A stretch of 21,625 nucleotides of DNA from a virus. Lineage: Duplodnaviria; Heunggongvirae; Uroviricota; Caudoviricetes. Shown here one piece after another: positions 3,976-21,625 of the stretch (position 1 is its first letter; each line of letters starts with the position of its first letter). Location: the IMG/VR virus record IMGVR_UViG_2563366928_000011. The stretch is one strand, 5' to 3'. Position numbers and translations under genes: made by a program. Under the pieces are notes generated by a model. The model was not told where the DNA came from. It saw only the letters and a list, made by a program, of their open reading frames with translations, and did not search any database.

Positions 3976-6702
3976 CTATTCCCATTCGCTAACATCTTTC
4001 ATGCCACTGAGGGTAGCTACAATCCCGGCCCTTGTCAGTTTCACGAATTCTTCAGCCCCAACGGCATCACGAATTGCTTTCATGGCAATTTTATTGGCCG
4101 AAAATCGTTTCTCTGCTGCGGCGATCGCTGCTGGTGATGCCCCTGCGCGCACTGCTTTTGTAGCTTCCTGAACGGCTTTCTCTATCGCATATCGACCACT
4201 TCTTGTCGCCCCAATCTTAGCCACAGCATTTCTTAGCGCGCCACCAGCAACCAAACCACTTATCGAACCAATTACACCACCGCCAAAGCCTCCAGCGATC
4301 GCACCTGACTGTTGAACTCCGTTCATAATCACGCCGACGATCTTTGGAAGGCCTGAATCGAGCGTTTTGAGAGCCTCAGTTGTTCTTCCCGTGCGCTCTA
4401 CGTATCGCTGCGGTCTGGTACTGGCTTTAGCGAGTACACCGAACTCTTTCATCATTCTACCGAGATCTGGCGCATGACGACTGATGGCGTTTACATTCTG
4501 CTGGGTCATGAGCTTGGCAAAATACTGGATACCTGACTCTTCACCGATTCCTCCCTTCTCTCCCTGCGCCACAGCATGCTGAAGAATAGATGCTATTGCA
4601 GGTTGGCGTTCTGCTTCCGGCAGCGCGGAGATAAGACGGTGAAAAGCTCCCGTTCCAGTGTTTGCGGATGCCTTAAGCGTATCGGCACCTTTTCTTACCA
4701 TAGCGTCTGATGCGAGATCTCGACCAAAAACAGATTCGGCATTTTGTTTGGCGATAATGTAACTTTTAGAGAGATCGTTAGCTTTCTGCCATTCTGTGAG
4801 GAAGTTTCCTTTTTCAGCCATGATGCGCATGTCATCAGTGATAGCTCTGCGCATTTCTCCGGCAATCCGGGCGGCATTGGCCTTACCTGCCCGGGTGTTT
4901 GCTTGTTCAGCATCAGCAAACTTAGTACGCCATGCCTTCATCCCGTCGAAGGTTATGCCGCCACCTTGGTTGTTGGCAGCCTGAAACTGTTTCATCTCCG
5001 GGCTGAGTGGAACATTGGCTGCTTTTTCTGCTTGGACGACAGCCATCCCATTACTCATTTTCATCCTTTCGCGTGGCATCGTGCTTCGCAGTTCTGCCCA
5101 TGCCATATTCTCTGCTGTTTTCATATCACTGAGGCTCGCGATGATGCGCTCTTTAATTGCTGCGCTTTTTTCTGATGCGCTTCCAGACTCAGCACCGAAA
5201 TCAGACAACTGCTTATTCAACTTTGAGGATATTTCATTGAAGGCCGTAAGGTGAGCATCCTGAACATTCCCAGGAGTTGATGCCAGAACACCTTCTGCTT
5301 GGGCAATTCCACGACTACCTGAGCGCATTCCAGGCGTCAGGGTGTTGATATTAATACCAGTGATTTTCGCCGCCTTAGCGACATCATCTCTGACGTTTGA
5401 TGCCTGCGATGCGATATGCTCTCGGCCTACGGCAGAACGCGCTGCTTTCGATACATCATTGGCGGTTTCCAGAGTATTTGCTGCCCCTAACACATGGCCT
5501 GATTGATTTGTATTACTCCGCAATACATCTCGCATTACGTCACTGGCTGTCTGTCCGCTCTTTATTAAAGCGCGTGCTCCTAGCGATCCTGCTAGGCCAA
5601 TACCTGTCTCTTTTGCTAGGTCTTCTGGGCTGATCTGCCCGTTCTTTTGGGCGTTCACCAATGTACCTGGCAGGTTTTCTGCCAACATACTAGCCACCTT
5701 TGTGGCCGCACGTTCAGCACGTGGAGCGTTGGCAACTGAAGAAGCTGCGGTAGCTGCCTTTCCTGCACCTAATCCTGTAATAAGGTAAGGTGCTAGCTGC
5801 TCACCAGCCTGCGCGTATGGATCTGTAGGTTGGTCTACTGGGCGAAAGACAGGTGATATGGGCGTGTATGTGCCATCACCCACACCAAGCTTCTGAGCTG
5901 CCCATGCTCCGGCTGATTGCGCCGCATTGACTACCCCCACGCCTGCGTCCATTACATCAAACGGTATATTAGCAATCCCTCTGGCCATCTGCTCTGGCGC
6001 AGCTTTCAGTCCTGGCGAAAGATATTCCATCTCAGGATTAAGGTTAGACTTGGCTACTTGCTGCTGCGGTTCCCCGGCATTTTCATCGGCGAGAAACTGA
6101 GCTCTTTTCTGCTCCCATGAACTGGCTGTTGGTAGTCCTGCTTCTATGTTCTTAAATTGCTGACGTTTTGCTTCCCATGCAGAAATATCTCCCACCTGAG
6201 AGATTTCTTTATCAAGCTCTGAGTAGTCAGGCTGCTGAAGATTGCGATGTTGACTGGTTTGTGCAAACTGCAAGATTTCACTGTCATCAGGGATTATTCC
6301 GGCATCTGCAAATTTACTTACGTAATTAGCCGTTTCATCTGGCAGTGTAGATTTACCGTTTCTGACGGCATTAATACGAGCATAGCCAGAATTATACCCA
6401 GCCAATGCCATACCTATATCACCAAATCGCTTCATTCCTTTATTGAGATGGTTTGCTGCGATATCCATTTGCTTTTCAAATGGCAGTGAGCGCGGATCTG
6501 TTCCACGATAACCAGCATCACTCATTACTGAGGGCATCAGTTGAGCAAATCCTCTAGCTCCTTTCGGTGACTCGGCACTTCCGTTACCACTAGATTCATT
6601 GCCAACTAATGTTTCCATCGTCCCTGATGGGAAACCATATTTTTCATCGAGATGACGGGAATAGGCTTTCTGTTTTTCTGTCAGTTGTGCCATCATTGCC
6701 AT
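3976..6702 (-). CDS. Large virion/ejection-type protein with N-terminal SLT lytic transglycosylase domain
   Basis: 908-aa ORF. N-terminus carries SLT-like motifs (GNESSGNGSAE..GARGFAQLMPS and ALAGYNSGYARI). Long Ala/Gly/Gln-rich helical remainder. Last gene of a four-gene cassette; start overlaps the stop of the upstream gene. Confidence 0.75.
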   Translation of the reverse strand: MAMMAQLTEKQKAYSRHLDEKYGFPSGTMETLVGNESSGNGSAESPKGARGFAQLMPSVMSDAGYRGTDPRSLPFEKQMDIAANHLNKGMKRFGDIGMALAGYNSGYARINAVRNGKSTLPDETANYVSKFADAGIIPDDSEILQFAQTSQHRNLQQPDYSELDKEISQVGDISAWEAKRQQFKNIEAGLPTASSWEQKRAQFLADENAGEPQQQVAKSNLNPEMEYLSPGLKAAPEQMARGIANIPFDVMDAGVGVVNAAQSAGAWAAQKLGVGDGTYTPISPVFRPVDQPTDPYAQAGEQLAPYLITGLGAGKAATAASSVANAPRAERAATKVASMLAENLPGTLVNAQKNGQISPEDLAKETGIGLAGSLGARALIKSGQTASDVMRDVLRSNTNQSGHVLGAANTLETANDVSKAARSAVGREHIASQASNVRDDVAKAAKITGININTLTPGMRSGSRGIAQAEGVLASTPGNVQDAHLTAFNEISSKLNKQLSDFGAESGSASEKSAAIKERIIASLSDMKTAENMAWAELRSTMPRERMKMSNGMAVVQAEKAANVPLSPEMKQFQAANNQGGGITFDGMKAWRTKFADAEQANTRAGKANAARIAGEMRRAITDDMRIMAEKGNFLTEWQKANDLSKSYIIAKQNAESVFGRDLASDAMVRKGADTLKASANTGTGAFHRLISALPEAERQPAIASILQHAVAQGEKGGIGEESGIQYFAKLMTQQNVNAISRHAPDLGRMMKEFGVLAKASTRPQRYVERTGRTTEALKTLDSGLPKIVGVIMNGVQQSGAIAGGFGGGVIGSISGLVAGGALRNAVAKIGATRSGRYAIEKAVQEATKAVRAGASPAAIAAAEKRFSANKIAMKAIRDAVGAEEFVKLTRAGIVATLSGMKDVSEWE

Positions 6703-8012
6703 CCCTTAAGTTTTGCCTGATAGTAACTTTCCGGCAGATAGCCATGTGCGGTCACATAATCCTTAACCAGTGAAGGATCCTGCAACAGCATTTTGGTATC
6801 AGTTTCTTCGTCCTTAGATTTGGTTACAGGAATACCGAGCCCGGCAATCTGTCGTTTCTGCATTCGAATAATTACGTCCTGCGCTTTATTCAACTCTCGC
6901 AAAAATGCCTCATTGCTGGTTGCTGACTTAATGCCATTTTGAGATTGCATAAGGGCAGCCCTTTCCCCTTCGGTTGGGTTAGAGCCAAAAGTCCCTTTGA
7001 GGCTAGGCAGAATAACCTTTAGGTTGTATTCATCAGCTTTGGCGCGTAGGCTTCGTGTGTCTTCTGCTACATCAGGAAGGAATCCAAACCCCAGCGTCAG
7101 GGGGTTATAGTTCTGCGAGCGGGTAACGGCCGAAGGATGTTTCCCTACAATTCCCGCCAGTTCATGACCCACTTCAAGCGCAGAGTTCAAGGAGTCGATG
7201 TTACCTGCAACAGTATTAATTTTATCGTTCATCTTCTCCACTTTCGCCTGCTGTACCTTGCTCAGTTCAGCATTGAGCTTGTCTCTCTCGATGTCATTTT
7301 GAGCACGTCCAAGTCGTGCTTTCAGAACCATTTCTCTCGTGCGTAGTTGGTTATCGGATAGGACTTTGAACTGCTCCATATCGAGACGTCGATTACCCTG
7401 TTCCGCATTAACCTGAGCATTATATGCGGATGTATCTGCGTTCTGCTGTGCAATGCTCTGCCCTTGCTGCTTCTCTTGAACACTAAAGTAACTATTTGGA
7501 TCAGCATGGAGGTGGATGAGGTCAGTGATTCTGTTGAATTCCTGTGGGTCATTCTGCCAAGACTGATAAACCTCTTCAGCAGGAAGACCAAATCGCTGTA
7601 ATACTGGATTTGCCTGCTGAATGGCCTTCTGCATGATCAGTGGATCTCCAGTTTGTGACGCAAGACGCAGATTCATGGCAGCGTCAGCGGTCTGTCGATT
7701 TTGCTCAGCATCAATGAATCCCATCTGTTTTTGAGAATCAGCCATAAACTGGGGATACTGGGCCATTAACTTCTGCACGCCAACACGATCATTATTAGCT
7801 ACCGCACTACCCAACCGTGCCTGATATTCTTTTAACTGCTGGGAAATTTGCGCCTGCTGATTAATCTCAGCAACGCCTCTTAGCCCCTGTAGCGCCATTA
7901 AACCTACGTTTGGCTGCTGCTGATACTGCACAGGCTGAGGAACGGAAGAACGAGGAGCATTATCATTTTGCGGTGCCATGCTAGGCAGCCCGCCAAGTTG
8001 CCATGTCGCCAT
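6693..8012 (-). CDS. Ejection/DNA-transfer-type protein, putative (P22 gp20-like by size and position)
   Basis: 439-aa ORF. Q/A/N-rich, predicted coiled-coil character. Tightly packed between the 225-aa and 908-aa genes. Assignment rests on architecture, not on a search. Confidence 0.6.
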   Translation of the reverse strand: MATWQLGGLPSMAPQNDNAPRSSVPQPVQYQQQPNVGLMALQGLRGVAEINQQAQISQQLKEYQARLGSAVANNDRVGVQKLMAQYPQFMADSQKQMGFIDAEQNRQTADAAMNLRLASQTGDPLIMQKAIQQANPVLQRFGLPAEEVYQSWQNDPQEFNRITDLIHLHADPNSYFSVQEKQQGQSIAQQNADTSAYNAQVNAEQGNRRLDMEQFKVLSDNQLRTREMVLKARLGRAQNDIERDKLNAELSKVQQAKVEKMNDKINTVAGNIDSLNSALEVGHELAGIVGKHPSAVTRSQNYNPLTLGFGFLPDVAEDTRSLRAKADEYNLKVILPSLKGTFGSNPTEGERAALMQSQNGIKSATSNEAFLRELNKAQDVIIRMQKRQIAGLGIPVTKSKDEETDTKMLLQDPSLVKDYVTAHGYLPESYYQAKLKGWQ

Positions 8013-9335: not shown

Positions 9336-9355
9336 AACTGTATAAAACAACAGTT
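9336..9355. promoter_or_regulatory. Palindrome AACTGT-N8-ACAGTT immediately upstream of the small RHH ORF
   Basis: Read directly: AACTGT 9336-9341 and ACAGTT 9350-9355. Candidate operator for autoregulation. Confidence 0.3.
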
Positions 9356-17454: not shown

Positions 17455-17886
17455 TTAGGCGGCGTTAAACGCGTCCGGGTAGAGTTTCAGAATGTCGGCA
17501 ATTTCCTGCTGAGAAAGTCCGTTGTGATCATTTATGTTCGCAAGATGGTTAATATGAGTGATCACTTTCAGAACATCACCACGGCAGGAGAAACGGTAGC
17601 GAAGGTGTGTTCCGATACCATCAGGATTCTTTTCGTCGATACGCTCCAGAGTGATTCCAAGCTGGCGTTCTAACTCTGTTGCATAGTTACGACCAGAAGA
17701 CAGACGGCAGTAGCGAAGAATGTCATTTTCTGTCCATCCCTCTATACCAGTACGCAGCATATAGACTCTGGCACGATGCTTTTTCGGTGTGCGCTTTGGT
17801 GCTTGAAGGGATTTTGTAAGGGGCGTAACATCAGATACACGAATATCTGAATTAGCCGCCTGTAATGGGCGGTTTTTCTTTTCCAT
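17455..17886 (-). CDS. Hypothetical protein (143 aa), basic N-terminus
   Basis: ATG at 17886 overlaps the AlpA stop (TGATG). GAGGTGG RBS. Confidence 0.55.
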   Translation of the reverse strand: MEKKNRPLQAANSDIRVSDVTPLTKSLQAPKRTPKKHRARVYMLRTGIEGWTENDILRYCRLSSGRNYATELERQLGITLERIDEKNPDGIGTHLRYRFSCRGDVLKVITHINHLANINDHNGLSQQEIADILKLYPDAFNAA

Positions 17887-18089
17887 CAGGCCACCTCGTC
17901 TCTAGATTCTAATATACACTTCTCAATCCATTCATCTATTTCAGACTCAACAAAAGCAATTGCCCGACTTCCAATTTTTACCTGTTTAGGGAACCTCCCC
18001 TGACTAATAAGACGATAAATCCATGCTTTGCTATAACCAGTTCGCCTTTGAACTTCAGAGAGACGAATTAATGAATTGTAATTAGCCAT
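17886..18089 (-). CDS. alpA: AlpA-family transcriptional regulator / excisionase-like
   Basis: 67-aa ORF. IRLSEVQRRTGYSKAWIYRLISQGRFPKQVKIGSRAIAFVESEIDEWI is the classic AlpA/phage-excisionase HTH pattern. First gene of the leftward operon. Confidence 0.8.
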   Translation of the reverse strand: MANYNSLIRLSEVQRRTGYSKAWIYRLISQGRFPKQVKIGSRAIAFVESEIDEWIEKCILESRDEVA

Positions 18090-18311: not shown

Positions 18312-18376
18312 TTAAAGAACAATTGCGCTTTGTCAGCGCCAAAGCCTGTTAAAGAACATTCCGCTTTGTCAGCGAC
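18312..18376. promoter_or_regulatory. Two direct repeats (TTAAAGAACA..CGCTTTGTCAGCG) upstream of alpA
   Basis: Copy 1 at 18312-18340 and copy 2 at 18349-18376. Copy 1 contains an internal GCGCT/AGCGC palindrome. Nearby hairpins GGGTAG-AG-CTACCC (about 18252-18265) and TCACGC-N6-GCGTGA (about 18280-18297). Confidence 0.4.
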
Positions 18377-18607
18377 GTAGAAGGCTCAATACACCTTCGT
18401 TTATAAAAGAGCGATTGCCCTTCTCCAGGGCTAACTGTTAAATAGCAATCCTCTGTGAGTTTTTATCAATCTACTCCCCTATACTTTAGTAAACCTCTGT
18501 ATACTTGTGGGTCTTCCCCTGTTGTGGTGGGTGGTACATAATTGAGTGATTTTCAAACACCACACAGTACCTTTATGGTGTCTCTTTTTACATGAGAGGG
18601 AATTCTT

Positions 18608-19126
18608 ATGAGTGTGCCGCAAACAAAAGCTGAACTGCTTTTAGCTATTGATAAAAATTTTAGTAAATTAATTAGTTACCTCAACACAATCCCACCAGAA
18701 ATTACTTCAGATAAATCAATGGACGGACACGCCAAAGGAACGGAGATGAGTGTTCGTGATCTCGTTTCGTATCTGCTTGGATGGAATGCTCTTGTTGTAA
18801 AGTGGATCGCTTCTGATGCTAAAGGTCTGCCTGTCGATTTTCCGGAAACTGGCTATAAATGGAATCAGCTTGGCCTTCTTGCTCAAAAATTTTACTCAGA
18901 TTACAGTGAGTTAAGTTATGAGTTGTTAGTAGCTGAACTTCAGACTGTAAAAAATGAGATTGTGAACCTTATTAATGATCGTACCGATGATATTTTGTAT
19001 GGAAGACCATGGTACACAAAATGGACGATGGGGAGAATGATCTCATTTAACACATCTTCGCCTTACGCCAACGCTAATGGAAGATTAAGAAAGTGGGCAA
19101 AAAATAATAATATCAGTTTAAAGTAA
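18608..19126 (+). CDS. ClbS/DfsB-family (DUF1706) four-helix-bundle protein
   Basis: 172-aa ORF. Matches remembered ClbS-type motifs (GHAKGT..SV.DLVSYL.GW, WN.LG.LAQKFY, GRPWYTKWT.GRMI.FNT.SPY). Lower GC than surroundings. Confidence 0.7.
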   Translation: MSVPQTKAELLLAIDKNFSKLISYLNTIPPEITSDKSMDGHAKGTEMSVRDLVSYLLGWNALVVKWIASDAKGLPVDFPETGYKWNQLGLLAQKFYSDYSELSYELLVAELQTVKNEIVNLINDRTDDILYGRPWYTKWTMGRMISFNTSSPYANANGRLRKWAKNNNISLK

Positions 19127-19144
19127 GCTTCAGAATGAAATTAT

Positions 19145-20365
19145 ATGGACGAAAAATCCCTCTATGCCCATATCCTTAACCTGACTGCACCATGGCAGGT
19201 TAAATCCCTTACCCTCGATGAAAATGCAGGTTCCGTTACTGTTACAGTCGGAATTGCTGAAAATACTCAGTTAACCTGTCCGACCTGCAGGAAATCCTGT
19301 TCTGTTCACGATCACCGACATCGTAAATGGCGCCACCTTGATACCTGCCAGTTCATGACATTAGTAGAAGCCGATGTTCCCCGCGTTATGTGCCCGGAGC
19401 ATGGCTGCCAGACTCTGCCTGTACCGTGGGCAGGTTCCGGCAGTCGGTACACTCTGCTGTTCGAATCGTTCGTGCTCTCATGGCTTAAAATCAGCACCGT
19501 TGATGCGGTCAGAAAACAACTTAAACTTAGCTGGAATGCCGTTGACGGCATCATGACCCGCGCGGTTAAGCGAGGCCTGTCGCGGATTAAAAAGCCTTTA
19601 TCAGTGCGTCATATGAATGTAGACGAAGTCGCCTTTAAAAAAGGGCATAGGTATATAACCGTGGTATCTGATCGCGACGGGCGGGCACTGGCATTAACCG
19701 ATGATCGTGGCACAGAGAGTCTTGCCAGCTATCTCCGTTCGCTTACTGACAGTCAGTTGTTGGCCATCAAAACACTGTCGATGGACATGAATGCGGGCTA
19801 TATAAGAGCAGCGCGTATCCATTTACCCAATGCGGTCGAGAAAATCGCCTTCGATCGCTTCCATGTGGCGAAGCAACTGGGCGAAGTGGTTGATAAAACC
19901 CGCCAGAATGAACATCCGCACCTCCCTGTTGAAAGTCGTCGTCAGGCCAAAGGTACCCGCTTCCTGTGGCAGTACAGCGACAAATGGATGACTGAGTCCC
20001 GGCAGGAAAAGCTGATGTGGTTGCGGGAACAGATGCAACAGACAAGCCAGTGCTGGACACTGAAAGAGCTGGCAAAAAATATCTGGGATCGCCCCTGGAG
20101 CACAGAACGCAGGAATGACTGGTTGCAGTGGATATCGCTGGCGTCTGAATGTGATGTGCCGATGATGAAAAACGCAGCGAAAACCATTAAAAAACGGTTA
20201 TACGGAATACTGAATGCAATGCGTCATCGCGTCTCGAATGGAAATGCGGAGGCGCTGAACAGCAAGATCAGACTGCTGAGGATAAAGGCCAGGGGATACC
20301 GAAACCGGGAACGCTTTAAACTGGGAGTTATGTTCCACTATGGGAAACTGAATATGGCGTACTGA
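19145..20365 (+). CDS. ISL3-family transposase
   Basis: 406-aa ORF. N-terminal C2C2 zinc-finger region (CPTCRKSC...CPEHGC) followed by a DDE-type core typical of ISL3 transposases. Bounded by the inverted repeats above. Confidence 0.85.
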   Translation: MDEKSLYAHILNLTAPWQVKSLTLDENAGSVTVTVGIAENTQLTCPTCRKSCSVHDHRHRKWRHLDTCQFMTLVEADVPRVMCPEHGCQTLPVPWAGSGSRYTLLFESFVLSWLKISTVDAVRKQLKLSWNAVDGIMTRAVKRGLSRIKKPLSVRHMNVDEVAFKKGHRYITVVSDRDGRALALTDDRGTESLASYLRSLTDSQLLAIKTLSMDMNAGYIRAARIHLPNAVEKIAFDRFHVAKQLGEVVDKTRQNEHPHLPVESRRQAKGTRFLWQYSDKWMTESRQEKLMWLREQMQQTSQCWTLKELAKNIWDRPWSTERRNDWLQWISLASECDVPMMKNAAKTIKKRLYGILNAMRHRVSNGNAEALNSKIRLLRIKARGYRNRERFKLGVMFHYGKLNMAY

Positions 20366-20410
20366 GTCTTCCCACCATGATCGGGGAAGACCCATACTTG
20401 TCCAGTTGTT

Positions 20411-21625
20411 TCATGCGTGTTTTTCAAACACCATATGCACCACATTTCCGCCATGCTCGAGAGAATCCATATAGTCGGCATACCATTGAAGCATCTCCCG
20501 CCTTCCATCCAGATATTGCGCATGGTTGTATGTGCCACGAATTGAGTTCTTATCAACGTGAGCGAGCTGCGTTTCTATCCACGCGGTGTTATAGCCCTGC
20601 TCATGCAAAATCGTACTCATAGTGTGCCGGAACCCATGACCAGTTACACGTCCAGCGTAGCCAATGCGCTTAAACACTTGGTTTATGCTGGCCTCGCTCA
20701 TTGTTTTCCTTGGATCATTGCGCCCGGGAAACATAAGAGGGTAATTGCCTGTTATTTCTCTAATCTTCCCAATAAGCGAAAGAGCCTGCTCAGACAATGG
20801 CACAATATGAGTCCGCCGCATTTTCATACGTGAAGCGGGTATCTCCCAGATAGCCTTGTTGAAATCAATTTCATCCCATAATGCGCCACGTAGTTCGCCA
20901 GTCCGCAAGCCGGTGATAATCAGTAGACGAGCCGCCATAACAACCAATGCGCTTCCTGAGTAACTGGACAATGCCTTGAAAAAATCAGGTAATTCTTTGG
21001 CTGTAAGGAAAGGGTAATGATTAGATTCATGGCCTTGCATCGCGCTAGTAAGGTCTGGTGCAGGGTTATACTCTGCGCGACCAGTGACTATTGCATAGCG
21101 GAAAACTTCCCCGCACCGTTGCCTCACTTTTTTGGCTTTTTCTGTAGCACCGCGCCCCTCGATGCGACGCAGCACATTCAGAAGTTCAAGTGGTTTGATT
21201 TCGGCGATGGGTTTTTTGCCAATGTAAGGGAACACATCTTTGTTGAAGGCTTCGAGGATGTCTGAAGCATAACCAGCAGACCATTTTTTTAATTTGCTGC
21301 TGTGCCACTCAAGGGCAATATCTTTGAAGGTGTTGTTTAACTGCGTTTCCCGGGCAATCTTTTCCTCTCGTTTCGCTTCCATCGGATCGATACCACCAGC
21401 GATACCTCTTTTCGCATCTTCACGTTTTGCCCTAGCATCGGCTAGAGTAACCTCAGGATAAACACCTAGTGCCAATAGCTTCTCTTTACCAGCTACACGA
21501 TATTTAAGTCGCCAGTATTTACCTCCATTAGGTTTTACCAAGAGATACAAACCGCCACCATCGGCCAGCTTGTAAGCCTTCTCTTTTGGCTTGGCTGTGT
21601 CTATTTGACGGGCATTGAGTTTCAC
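20411..21625 (-). CDS. P4-type tyrosine integrase (site-specific recombinase)
   Basis: 404-aa ORF reaching the window edge; GTG at 21625 may be the start. N-terminal arm-binding pattern AKPKEKAYKLADGGGLYLLVKPNGGKYWRLKYR. C-terminal catalytic region HGFRHTMSTILHEQG...RGTYNHAQY (Arg/His/Tyr). Confidence 0.9.
   Translation of the reverse strand: MKLNARQIDTAKPKEKAYKLADGGGLYLLVKPNGGKYWRLKYRVAGKEKLLALGVYPEVTLADARAKREDAKRGIAGGIDPMEAKREEKIARETQLNNTFKDIALEWHSSKLKKWSAGYASDILEAFNKDVFPYIGKKPIAEIKPLELLNVLRRIEGRGATEKAKKVRQRCGEVFRYAIVTGRAEYNPAPDLTSAMQGHESNHYPFLTAKELPDFFKALSSYSGSALVVMAARLLIITGLRTGELRGALWDEIDFNKAIWEIPASRMKMRRTHIVPLSEQALSLIGKIREITGNYPLMFPGRNDPRKTMSEASINQVFKRIGYAGRVTGHGFRHTMSTILHEQGYNTAWIETQLAHVDKNSIRGTYNHAQYLDGRREMLQWYADYMDSLEHGGNVVHMVFEKHA

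Follow-up and report, generated by a model that had tools for sequence, protein, structure and literature searches.

An ISEc53 copy in a thrW island splits a LexA-box-like palindrome, in keeping with a recurrent insertion pattern of ISEc53 and its relatives

The DNA analyzed here (the window) is the whole 21,625-nucleotide (nt) stretch of IMG/VR virus record IMGVR_UViG_2563366928_000011, and our subject is an insertion sequence (IS) of the ISL3 family, ISEc53, which lies in it between an integrase gene (int) and the gene of an AlpA-family regulator (alpA) and which carries a ClbS-like passenger gene. Sequence reading and alignment of both ends place the IS at positions 18509 to 20393 (1,885 bp). 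It is bounded by two 23-bp terminal inverted repeats (IRs), the left one (IRL) at 18509 to 18531 on the plus strand (GGGTCTTCCCCTGTTGTGGTGGG) and the right one (IRR) at 20371 to 20393 on the minus strand (reverse complement GGGTCTTCCCCGATCATGGTGGG); the two match at 19 of 23 positions, are identical over their outer 11 bp (GGGTCTTCCCC), and form the longest inverted repeat of the region (I1). Directly outside the IRs are the two copies of an 8-bp target-site duplication, ATACTTGT, at 18501 to 18508 and 20394 to 20401, which is present as a single copy in empty sites; a match of 8 out of 8 at a fixed position would be expected by chance in about 1 of 65,000 cases. Both features are those of ISL3 elements, which have IRs of about 15 to 40 bp starting with GG and duplicate 8 bp of target. 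The original prediction, made from the letters alone, had set the element at 18508 to 20394 with a 24-bp imperfect inverted repeat and a TACTTG direct repeat. The place of the IS, the imperfect IRs, and the intact duplication all held, but the true extent is one base less on each side, the IRs are 23 bp long, and TACTTG is the inner part only of the 8-bp duplication, because one flanking base had been assigned to each IR. The int stop codon (20411 to 20413, minus strand) is 9 nt away from the end of the duplicated target and 17 nt away from the end of the IS, close to the distance of 11 bp that had been given.

The IS encodes two proteins on its plus strand. The passenger gene at 18608 to 19126 encodes a protein of 172 amino acids (EcDfsB) of the DUF1706 (ClbS/DfsB) family (Pfam PF08020, E value of 3e-54), and the gene at 19145 to 20365 encodes the ISL3-family transposase of 406 amino acids, with the Pfam domains Zn_ribbon_ISL3, HTH_Tnp_ISL3, and DDE_Tnp_ISL3 (PF01610, with an E value of 1e-58, PF13542, and PF14690, all above the curated cut-offs). 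Outside the duplication, the IS is flanked by the sequences CTGT at 18497 to 18500 and CCAG at 20402 to 20405, the two half-sites of a LexA-box-like palindrome that is found intact, as CTGT-ATACTTGT-CCAG, in an island with an empty site (locus L001).

The Pfam domains bore out the assignment to the ISL3 type, and the name that the annotation pipeline gives to such elements is ISEc53. Over its 1,885 bp, the element was 100% identical to copies whose annotation gives ISEc53 together with a ClbS/DfsB family protein, so that it is identified over its full length via copies named by RefSeq/PGAP; the name thus rests on the label "ISL3-like element ISEc53 family" carried by the transposase of the identical copies. 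A megablast search of 5,426 complete Escherichia coli genomes yielded full-length copies in 657 of them, on chromosomes and plasmids and at up to nine places per genome (724 records were ≥99% identical to the element), and a further 203 plasmids in PLSDB contained a full-length copy. No full-length copy, among 715 records with coverage of 80% or more, lacked the passenger gene. At no fewer than 17 other sites, 100% identical copies had the same ends, each with an 8-bp duplication of its own, and the IRs, in the same sequence, were present in every other copy examined. Since the DUF1706 gene lay inside the IRs of identical copies at 29 distinct sites, the element behaves as a transporter IS, and the earlier view that it mobilizes a ClbS-like gene is well founded. 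The insertion in fimB described for E. coli sequence type 131 (ST131) is the same ISEc53 unit, with 23-bp IRs and two coding sequences (Totsika et al. 2011, PMC3203889).

More distant matches, at 80 to 90% identity, covered only positions 637 to 1885 of the element and belonged to ISKox3 and ISCfr12, ISL3 elements of 1,316 bp. The transposases of these elements and of ISEc53 share 90% identity at the protein level (84 to 88% at the DNA level), the outer ∼25 bp at both their left and right ends are the same, and their duplication is also 8 bp long, but they have no passenger gene, and the leader from IRL to the transposase gene measures 67 bp, in contrast to 636 bp in ISEc53. The shared left ends and the closely similar transposase show that ISEc53 is an ISKox3/ISCfr12 backbone with a DUF1706 module placed between IRL and the transposase gene. 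Within the ISEc53 leader, the segment at 18543 to 18562 directly matches the last codons of int (20414 to 20433) at 18 of 20 positions. We considered this match as a trace of cargo capture and rejected it; BLAST found an exact word of 13 nt only, with an E value of 0.31 in a small database, and we treat the match as chance.

The flanks of the IS, joined with a single ATACTTGT, were found at 100% identity in many E. coli genomes. The island closest to that of the window is the thrW island of two UK blood isolates, which differs from it by four single-nucleotide polymorphisms and one 1-nt insertion or deletion over 19.7 kb and whose IS site is empty. That so similar an island lacks the IS indicates that the insertion is recent, and the description of it as a recent, clean insertion was apt. 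None of the complete E. coli genomes searched with the whole window had the IS at the int-alpA site of the thrW island, and neither did any of the metagenome and viral contigs scanned or of the assemblies looked up through the exact integrase and cargo proteins. Taken as a whole, an intact, recently transposed copy of ISEc53 is the best explanation of the feature, and we hold it with high confidence. The original prediction thus read the element correctly; ISEc53 is already named and very common, its cargo, crystal structure, and epidemiology are already in the literature, and what is new about the element itself is one more insertion site.

The main result concerns the choice of insertion site. 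Other identical copies are flanked as ACTGT-(8-bp duplication)-IS-(8-bp duplication)-ACAGT. We compiled sites from 20 annotated loci, two Klebsiella plasmids, 57 metagenome contigs, two viral contigs, and 10 further assemblies; the two plasmids were the only matches in a left-end scan of a collection with one genome per species and added two sites. At 29 distinct left junctions of ISEc53, CTG occupied positions −12 to −10 in 28 cases and CTGT positions −12 to −9 in 27. Among the complete copies, 18 distinct ones had a perfect 8-bp duplication, and every one of these spanned CTG-N10-CAG, with CAG at +10 to +12. The E. coli LexA box has the 20-nt consensus TACTGTATATATATACAGTA, and the consensus of the left half of the ISEc53 targets, derived from position counts (ACTGT-ATATATAT), agrees with it. 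The 8-bp duplication was always the spacer between the half-sites, in exact register. CTGT and ACAG are not DNA of the element itself, a possibility that we rejected because the empty sites hold the intact palindrome. By chance, CTGT-N8-[A/C]CAG is expected at about 1 position in 30,000; two further sites of this kind occur in the window, where 1.0 would be expected, and one of the two was counted on both strands.

According to the annotated neighbors, ISEc53 was inserted at sbmC, dinD, umuDC, a divergent dinI/umuDC pair, symE, and a plasmid dinI-umuD operon, as well as in prophages, and the sbmC and dinD boxes were each struck in both orientations. ISKox3 was inserted at the sbmC and tisB boxes, and the plasmid copies of ISKox3/ISCfr12 were at perfect CTGT-N8-ACAG sites, plus two half-matches (ATAT...ACAG and ATGT...ACAG, both of ISKox3). 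The insertion pattern of ISEc53, ISKox3, and ISCfr12 at CTGT-N8-ACAG LexA boxes is nearly certain. Full-text literature searches yielded no report of an IS that targets LexA or SOS boxes; operator-specific targeting by this ISL3 clade seems to be unreported and is the real lead of this analysis.

Two further observations were made during the census. One ISEc53 copy is inside the transposase gene of IS150 at AGCTGT-ATTTGTCT-CCAGTA (L019 and L184; E. coli SF-088 and another genome), a box-like site with a CCAG right half like that of the window's target. In four metagenome contigs (L038, L065, L077, and L079), the two flanks of ISEc53 did not belong to one and the same known site: a left flank from dinD was paired with a right flank from plasmid umuD, for instance, and left flanks of the L016 type or from IS150 were paired with that of fimB on the right; these contigs are either assembly chimeras across the repeat or products of real recombination between IS copies.

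In the window, the palindrome CTGT-N8-CCAG starts 5 nt after the int stop codon. The reconstructed target CTGTATACTTGTCCAG contains the CTG-N10-CAG core and matches the LexA consensus at 13 of 20 positions by manual count; only two others among the ∼21,600 positions of the IS-containing window score 13 or higher. No 20-mer in the interval from 18401 to 20500 reaches 13 of 20 or has a CTG-N10-CAG core, by which we rejected a LexA box belonging to the IS itself or a box recreated at its junctions. We then compared 80 viral-contig loci (L087 to L166) encoding integrases 86 to 100% identical to that of the window. In 65 of them, CTG-N10-CAG followed the integrase stop codon at a distance of 0 to 5 nt, in at least three unrelated downstream sequence backgrounds (e.g., TAA-CTGTATGTATAGACAG and TGA-CTGGTTGAGTATACAG). 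Retention of the core across unrelated backgrounds argues for a function and points to an SOS operator, conserved in this island family, where the operon on the alpA side begins.

The same position holds a candidate promoter. In the empty-site island, a promoter scan found the minus-strand sequence TGGACA-17-TAAAGT, which overlaps the box via its −35 hexamer and faces alpA; in the window with the IS, the scan did not find this site, as the −35-like hexamer (TGGACA, 20399 to 20404, minus strand) is separated by the IS from the −10-like hexamer (TAAAGT, 18483 to 18488, minus strand, on the alpA side, with coordinates mapped manually), both hexamers being consensus matches only. Downstream of the split site, the leftward operon begins with alpA (17886 to 18089, minus strand; 67 amino acids; Pfam Phage_AlpA, E value of 7e-20). 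A second and better LexA-box-like site, AACTGTTGTTTTATACAGTT, at 9336 to 9355 on the minus strand is immediately preceded by a perfect TATAAT and followed by the AAGGGGG-N6-ATG of a small open reading frame (ORF), which heads an operon with a DUF2824 gene and genes for P22-like ejection proteins. With boxes at the heads of two operons, the island looks SOS regulated, and the IS would have destroyed one of its predicted operators. By splitting this putative operator together with the overlapping promoter-like site that reads toward alpA, the IS probably removed SOS control of alpA; expression of alpA and its downstream genes in the SOS response would then probably be weakened or uncoupled from LexA, and with it the induction or excision of the island. 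The original suggestion that the IS could alter excision control thereby becomes more specific.

The assignment of the cargo to the ClbS-like proteins was confirmed by search. The PF08020 profile covers residues 1 to 165 of 172, a full-length match to this family of four-helix-bundle proteins, PGAP names the protein "ClbS/DfsB family," and its identity to ClbS across the full length is 54%, with an E value of 1e-55 to the ClbS structure 6ANR. In the pairwise alignment, Tyr55 of the passenger protein (VSYLLGW) is opposite Tyr55 of ClbS (VSYLIGW), a residue for which Tripathi et al. in 2017 reportedly described a catalytic role. ClbS, the cyclopropane hydrolase of the pks island that confers colibactin self-resistance, belongs to the same Pfam family and length class as the passenger protein, whose gene, unlike clbS, is borne by an IS and is not part of the pks cluster. 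The passenger protein is 100% identical to a protein of solved structure, PDB 5COF, which is "EcDfsB" of E. coli UTI89 and comes from a study of the Paenibacillus sibling-lethal-factor family (PMC4773401). In the work of Silpe et al. (PMC8907063), all ClbS-like proteins assayed, with 25 to 80% identity to ClbS, protected E. coli from colibactin, and orphan ClbS-like proteins of pks-negative bacteria likewise protect against it. A 2025 preprint (bioRxiv 10.1101/2025.11.17.686825) describes that pks-negative E. coli often carry a clbS-like gene beside a single ISL3 transposase gene on plasmids and chromosomes, names this unit the "clbS-like transposon," and, from structural similarity and distribution, connects it with the expansions of ST131, ST69, and ST95. 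A study of ST95 lists both genes as borne by pUTI89 and the chromosome (PMC10783064). By homology, the most likely role of the cargo is to inactivate cyclopropane warheads of the colibactin type, as ClbS does, and thereby to protect the DNA of its host.

The passenger and transposase genes are on the same strand and 18 bp apart, an anatomy that suggests that they are probably cotranscribed. A promoter scan of the IS upstream of the passenger gene found no site at the scan threshold, and promoters in the flanks may therefore contribute to expression of the cargo. The idea that the cargo is always placed behind an SOS promoter was rejected, since both orientations occur at sbmC and dinD and the orientation relative to the neighboring SOS gene is thus not fixed.

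How the target is chosen can be explained in more than one way. In the proposal that we favor somewhat over its rivals, this clade is site specific for the LexA operator and cuts at both edges of its 8-bp spacer. In the window, the transposase made 8-bp staggered cuts and duplicated ATACTTGT, the center of the palindrome CTGT-N8-CCAG, a target that is not random; the transposase complex probably reads both half-sites and the AT-rich center directly. Two points weigh against the proposal. The census draws on 29 distinct sites among more than 3,000 places and is biased toward sites fixed in successful clones, and the fimB site of ST131 and Nissle, ATGG-ATATATAT-ACAC, is not a LexA box, so that targeting is strong but not absolute. 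(The fimB copy of ST131 has a 5-bp repeat, in contrast to the perfect 8-bp repeat in the window, because of a 3-bp deletion; the Nissle-type right flank in two metagenome contigs restores the 8-bp duplication.) The match to LexA boxes might instead be the outcome of selection after near-random insertion into AT-rich DNA, with the survivors sitting in dispensable SOS operators. The sampled genomes are indeed those of survivors, SOS genes are nonessential, and clonal spread has amplified frequent sites, fimB and the plasmid dinI-umuD box among them. However, the duplication is the spacer between CTGT and ACAG at every site, and selection on gene function cannot set cut positions to the base; moreover, the same boxes were struck independently in both orientations and by two different elements, and the sites include prophage sequences and the box-like sequence inside IS150. 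We regard selection as a highly improbable cause of the pattern. A closer competitor is targeting via the LexA protein, in which the transposase would be recruited to the LexA dimer on its operator or would need the DNA shape that LexA makes. The target logo reproduces the LexA consensus in its half-sites, spacing, and AT-rich center, and many sites are upstream of established SOS genes, as this model would have it. Against it, sites without a CTG half-site are also used (fimB and the two ISKox3 half-matches), where LexA should not bind and which favor direct reading over recruitment, and DDE transposases, such as those of Tn10 and Tn5, commonly read a symmetric target consensus directly. Recruitment by LexA is therefore possible but rather unlikely, and it is with modest confidence that we consider the targeting by ISEc53, ISKox3, and ISCfr12 to be both a real mechanistic preference and previously undescribed.

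The consequences proposed for the island and for the cargo have rivals of their own. The palindrome after the integrase gene might serve not as an operator but in some other way, such as within a terminator or as a recombination site, and the insertion would then leave the regulation of the island unaffected. A position directly after a stop codon is typical of terminators as well, the right half-site of the window's target is CCAG and not ACAG, the promoter-like site is a bare match to 9 of 12 consensus positions, and the alpA start is ∼400 nt away from the split site, so that alpA may have promoters of its own. This explanation is at odds with the conservation of the CTG-N10-CAG core in the related loci, where the surrounding sequence is completely different between island types, with the better box at 9336 to 9355, whose place between TATAAT and a ribosome-binding site with ATG fits an SOS-regulated island, and with the AT-rich center of the palindrome, which makes a poor terminator stem. 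We consider a palindrome without operator function unlikely, and a split operator remains the preferred explanation. With regard to the cargo, the DUF1706 gene might encode, instead of a colibactin resistance protein, a DfsB-type precursor of a secreted lethal peptide or an accessory factor of transposition. The gene is constantly linked to that of the transposase, and the depositors of the identical EcDfsB structure, crystallized within the sibling-lethal-factor study, discussed the protein as a possible lethal-peptide precursor (PMC4773401). The passenger protein is, however, far more similar to ClbS (54% identity, E value of 1e-55) than to the Paenibacillus bacteriocin precursor (E value of 8e-19), and the ClbS-like proteins assayed by Silpe et al. 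all protected against colibactin over a range of identities that includes its own. Because ISKox3 and ISCfr12 are mobile and make the same target choice without cargo, the passenger is not needed for transposition. Taken together, these findings leave a different role of the cargo improbable, and protection against colibactin-type toxins is the function that we prefer.

The window as a whole corresponds almost exactly to one thrW (tRNA-Thr) island of 19.7 kb beside proA, as annotated from the empty-site island, in which tRNA-Thr and proA adjoin the integrase gene. The P4-type tyrosine integrase of 404 amino acids is encoded at 20411 to 21625 on the minus strand (Pfam Arm-DNA-bind_3, Phage_int_M, and Phage_integrase), its ORF beginning at the window edge. 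The island carries int, alpA, a PM1773-family gene, antA, a DUF4222 gene, ash, and a DUF5906 primase-like gene, followed in this list by the genes of three P22-type DNA-ejection proteins, a lytic transglycosylase, an Abi protein, and PerC. The annotation includes no capsid or tail genes, and the thrW island may therefore be a phage satellite. In the otherwise nearly identical, empty-site island of isolate AF14, one extra T (L001 position 11561, corresponding to 7561 in the window) causes a frameshift in the gene of a 439-amino-acid ejection protein, and the gene in the window (6693 to 8012) is intact. Upstream of alpA, there are two direct copies of ATT[G/C]CGCTTTGTCAGCG at 18322 to 18338 and 18358 to 18374, 36 bp apart, and on the minus strand, a T-rich run follows the short hairpin (GCGCTGACAAAGCGC) that each copy forms; these repeats in the 400-nt alpA leader could be binding sites of a regulator or weak terminators. 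Other E. coli genomes with the same integrase (L167 and L169) have IS3-family elements in the int-alpA interval, in one case replacing alpA, and it seems that insertion sequences have landed in this interval repeatedly.

If the targeting is real, elements that are widespread in clinical Enterobacteria, including on IncX3 and IncF resistance plasmids and in the ST131 lineage, would have a predictable landing site. SOS boxes would be split on chromosomes, conjugative plasmids, prophages, and satellite islands, with systematic rewiring of SOS-regulated genes, and IS insertion would repeatedly harm or benefit SOS genes that act in mutagenesis, persistence, and gyrase protection (umuDC, tisB, symE, and sbmC). 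One such event could lock or unlock a mobile element under SOS control, the thrW island among them, and ISEc53 would place a genotoxin protection gene at DNA-damage-responsive promoters. The clade would also offer a simple means to investigate the reading of a 16- to 20-bp palindrome by a DDE transposase.

Compared with the ISEc53 copies already known, including the fimB copies of E. coli ST131 and Nissle 1917, the copy in the window has 100% nucleotide identity, the same two genes, 23-bp IRs, and an 8-bp duplication, and it differs solely in its location. Other site-specific elements provide the closest parallel to the targeting. IS1397 and ISKpn1 target REP/BIME palindromes, IS1111-type elements attC or REP sites, and Tn7 attTn7. 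Like ISEc53, these elements insert in a fixed register into a recurring, mostly intergenic host sequence, also on plasmids and prophages. In contrast to them, the motif of ISEc53 is the operator of a transcription factor, the LexA box, and the element is a DDE transposon of the ISL3 family that makes an ordinary 8-bp duplication, with no extra target-selector protein evident.

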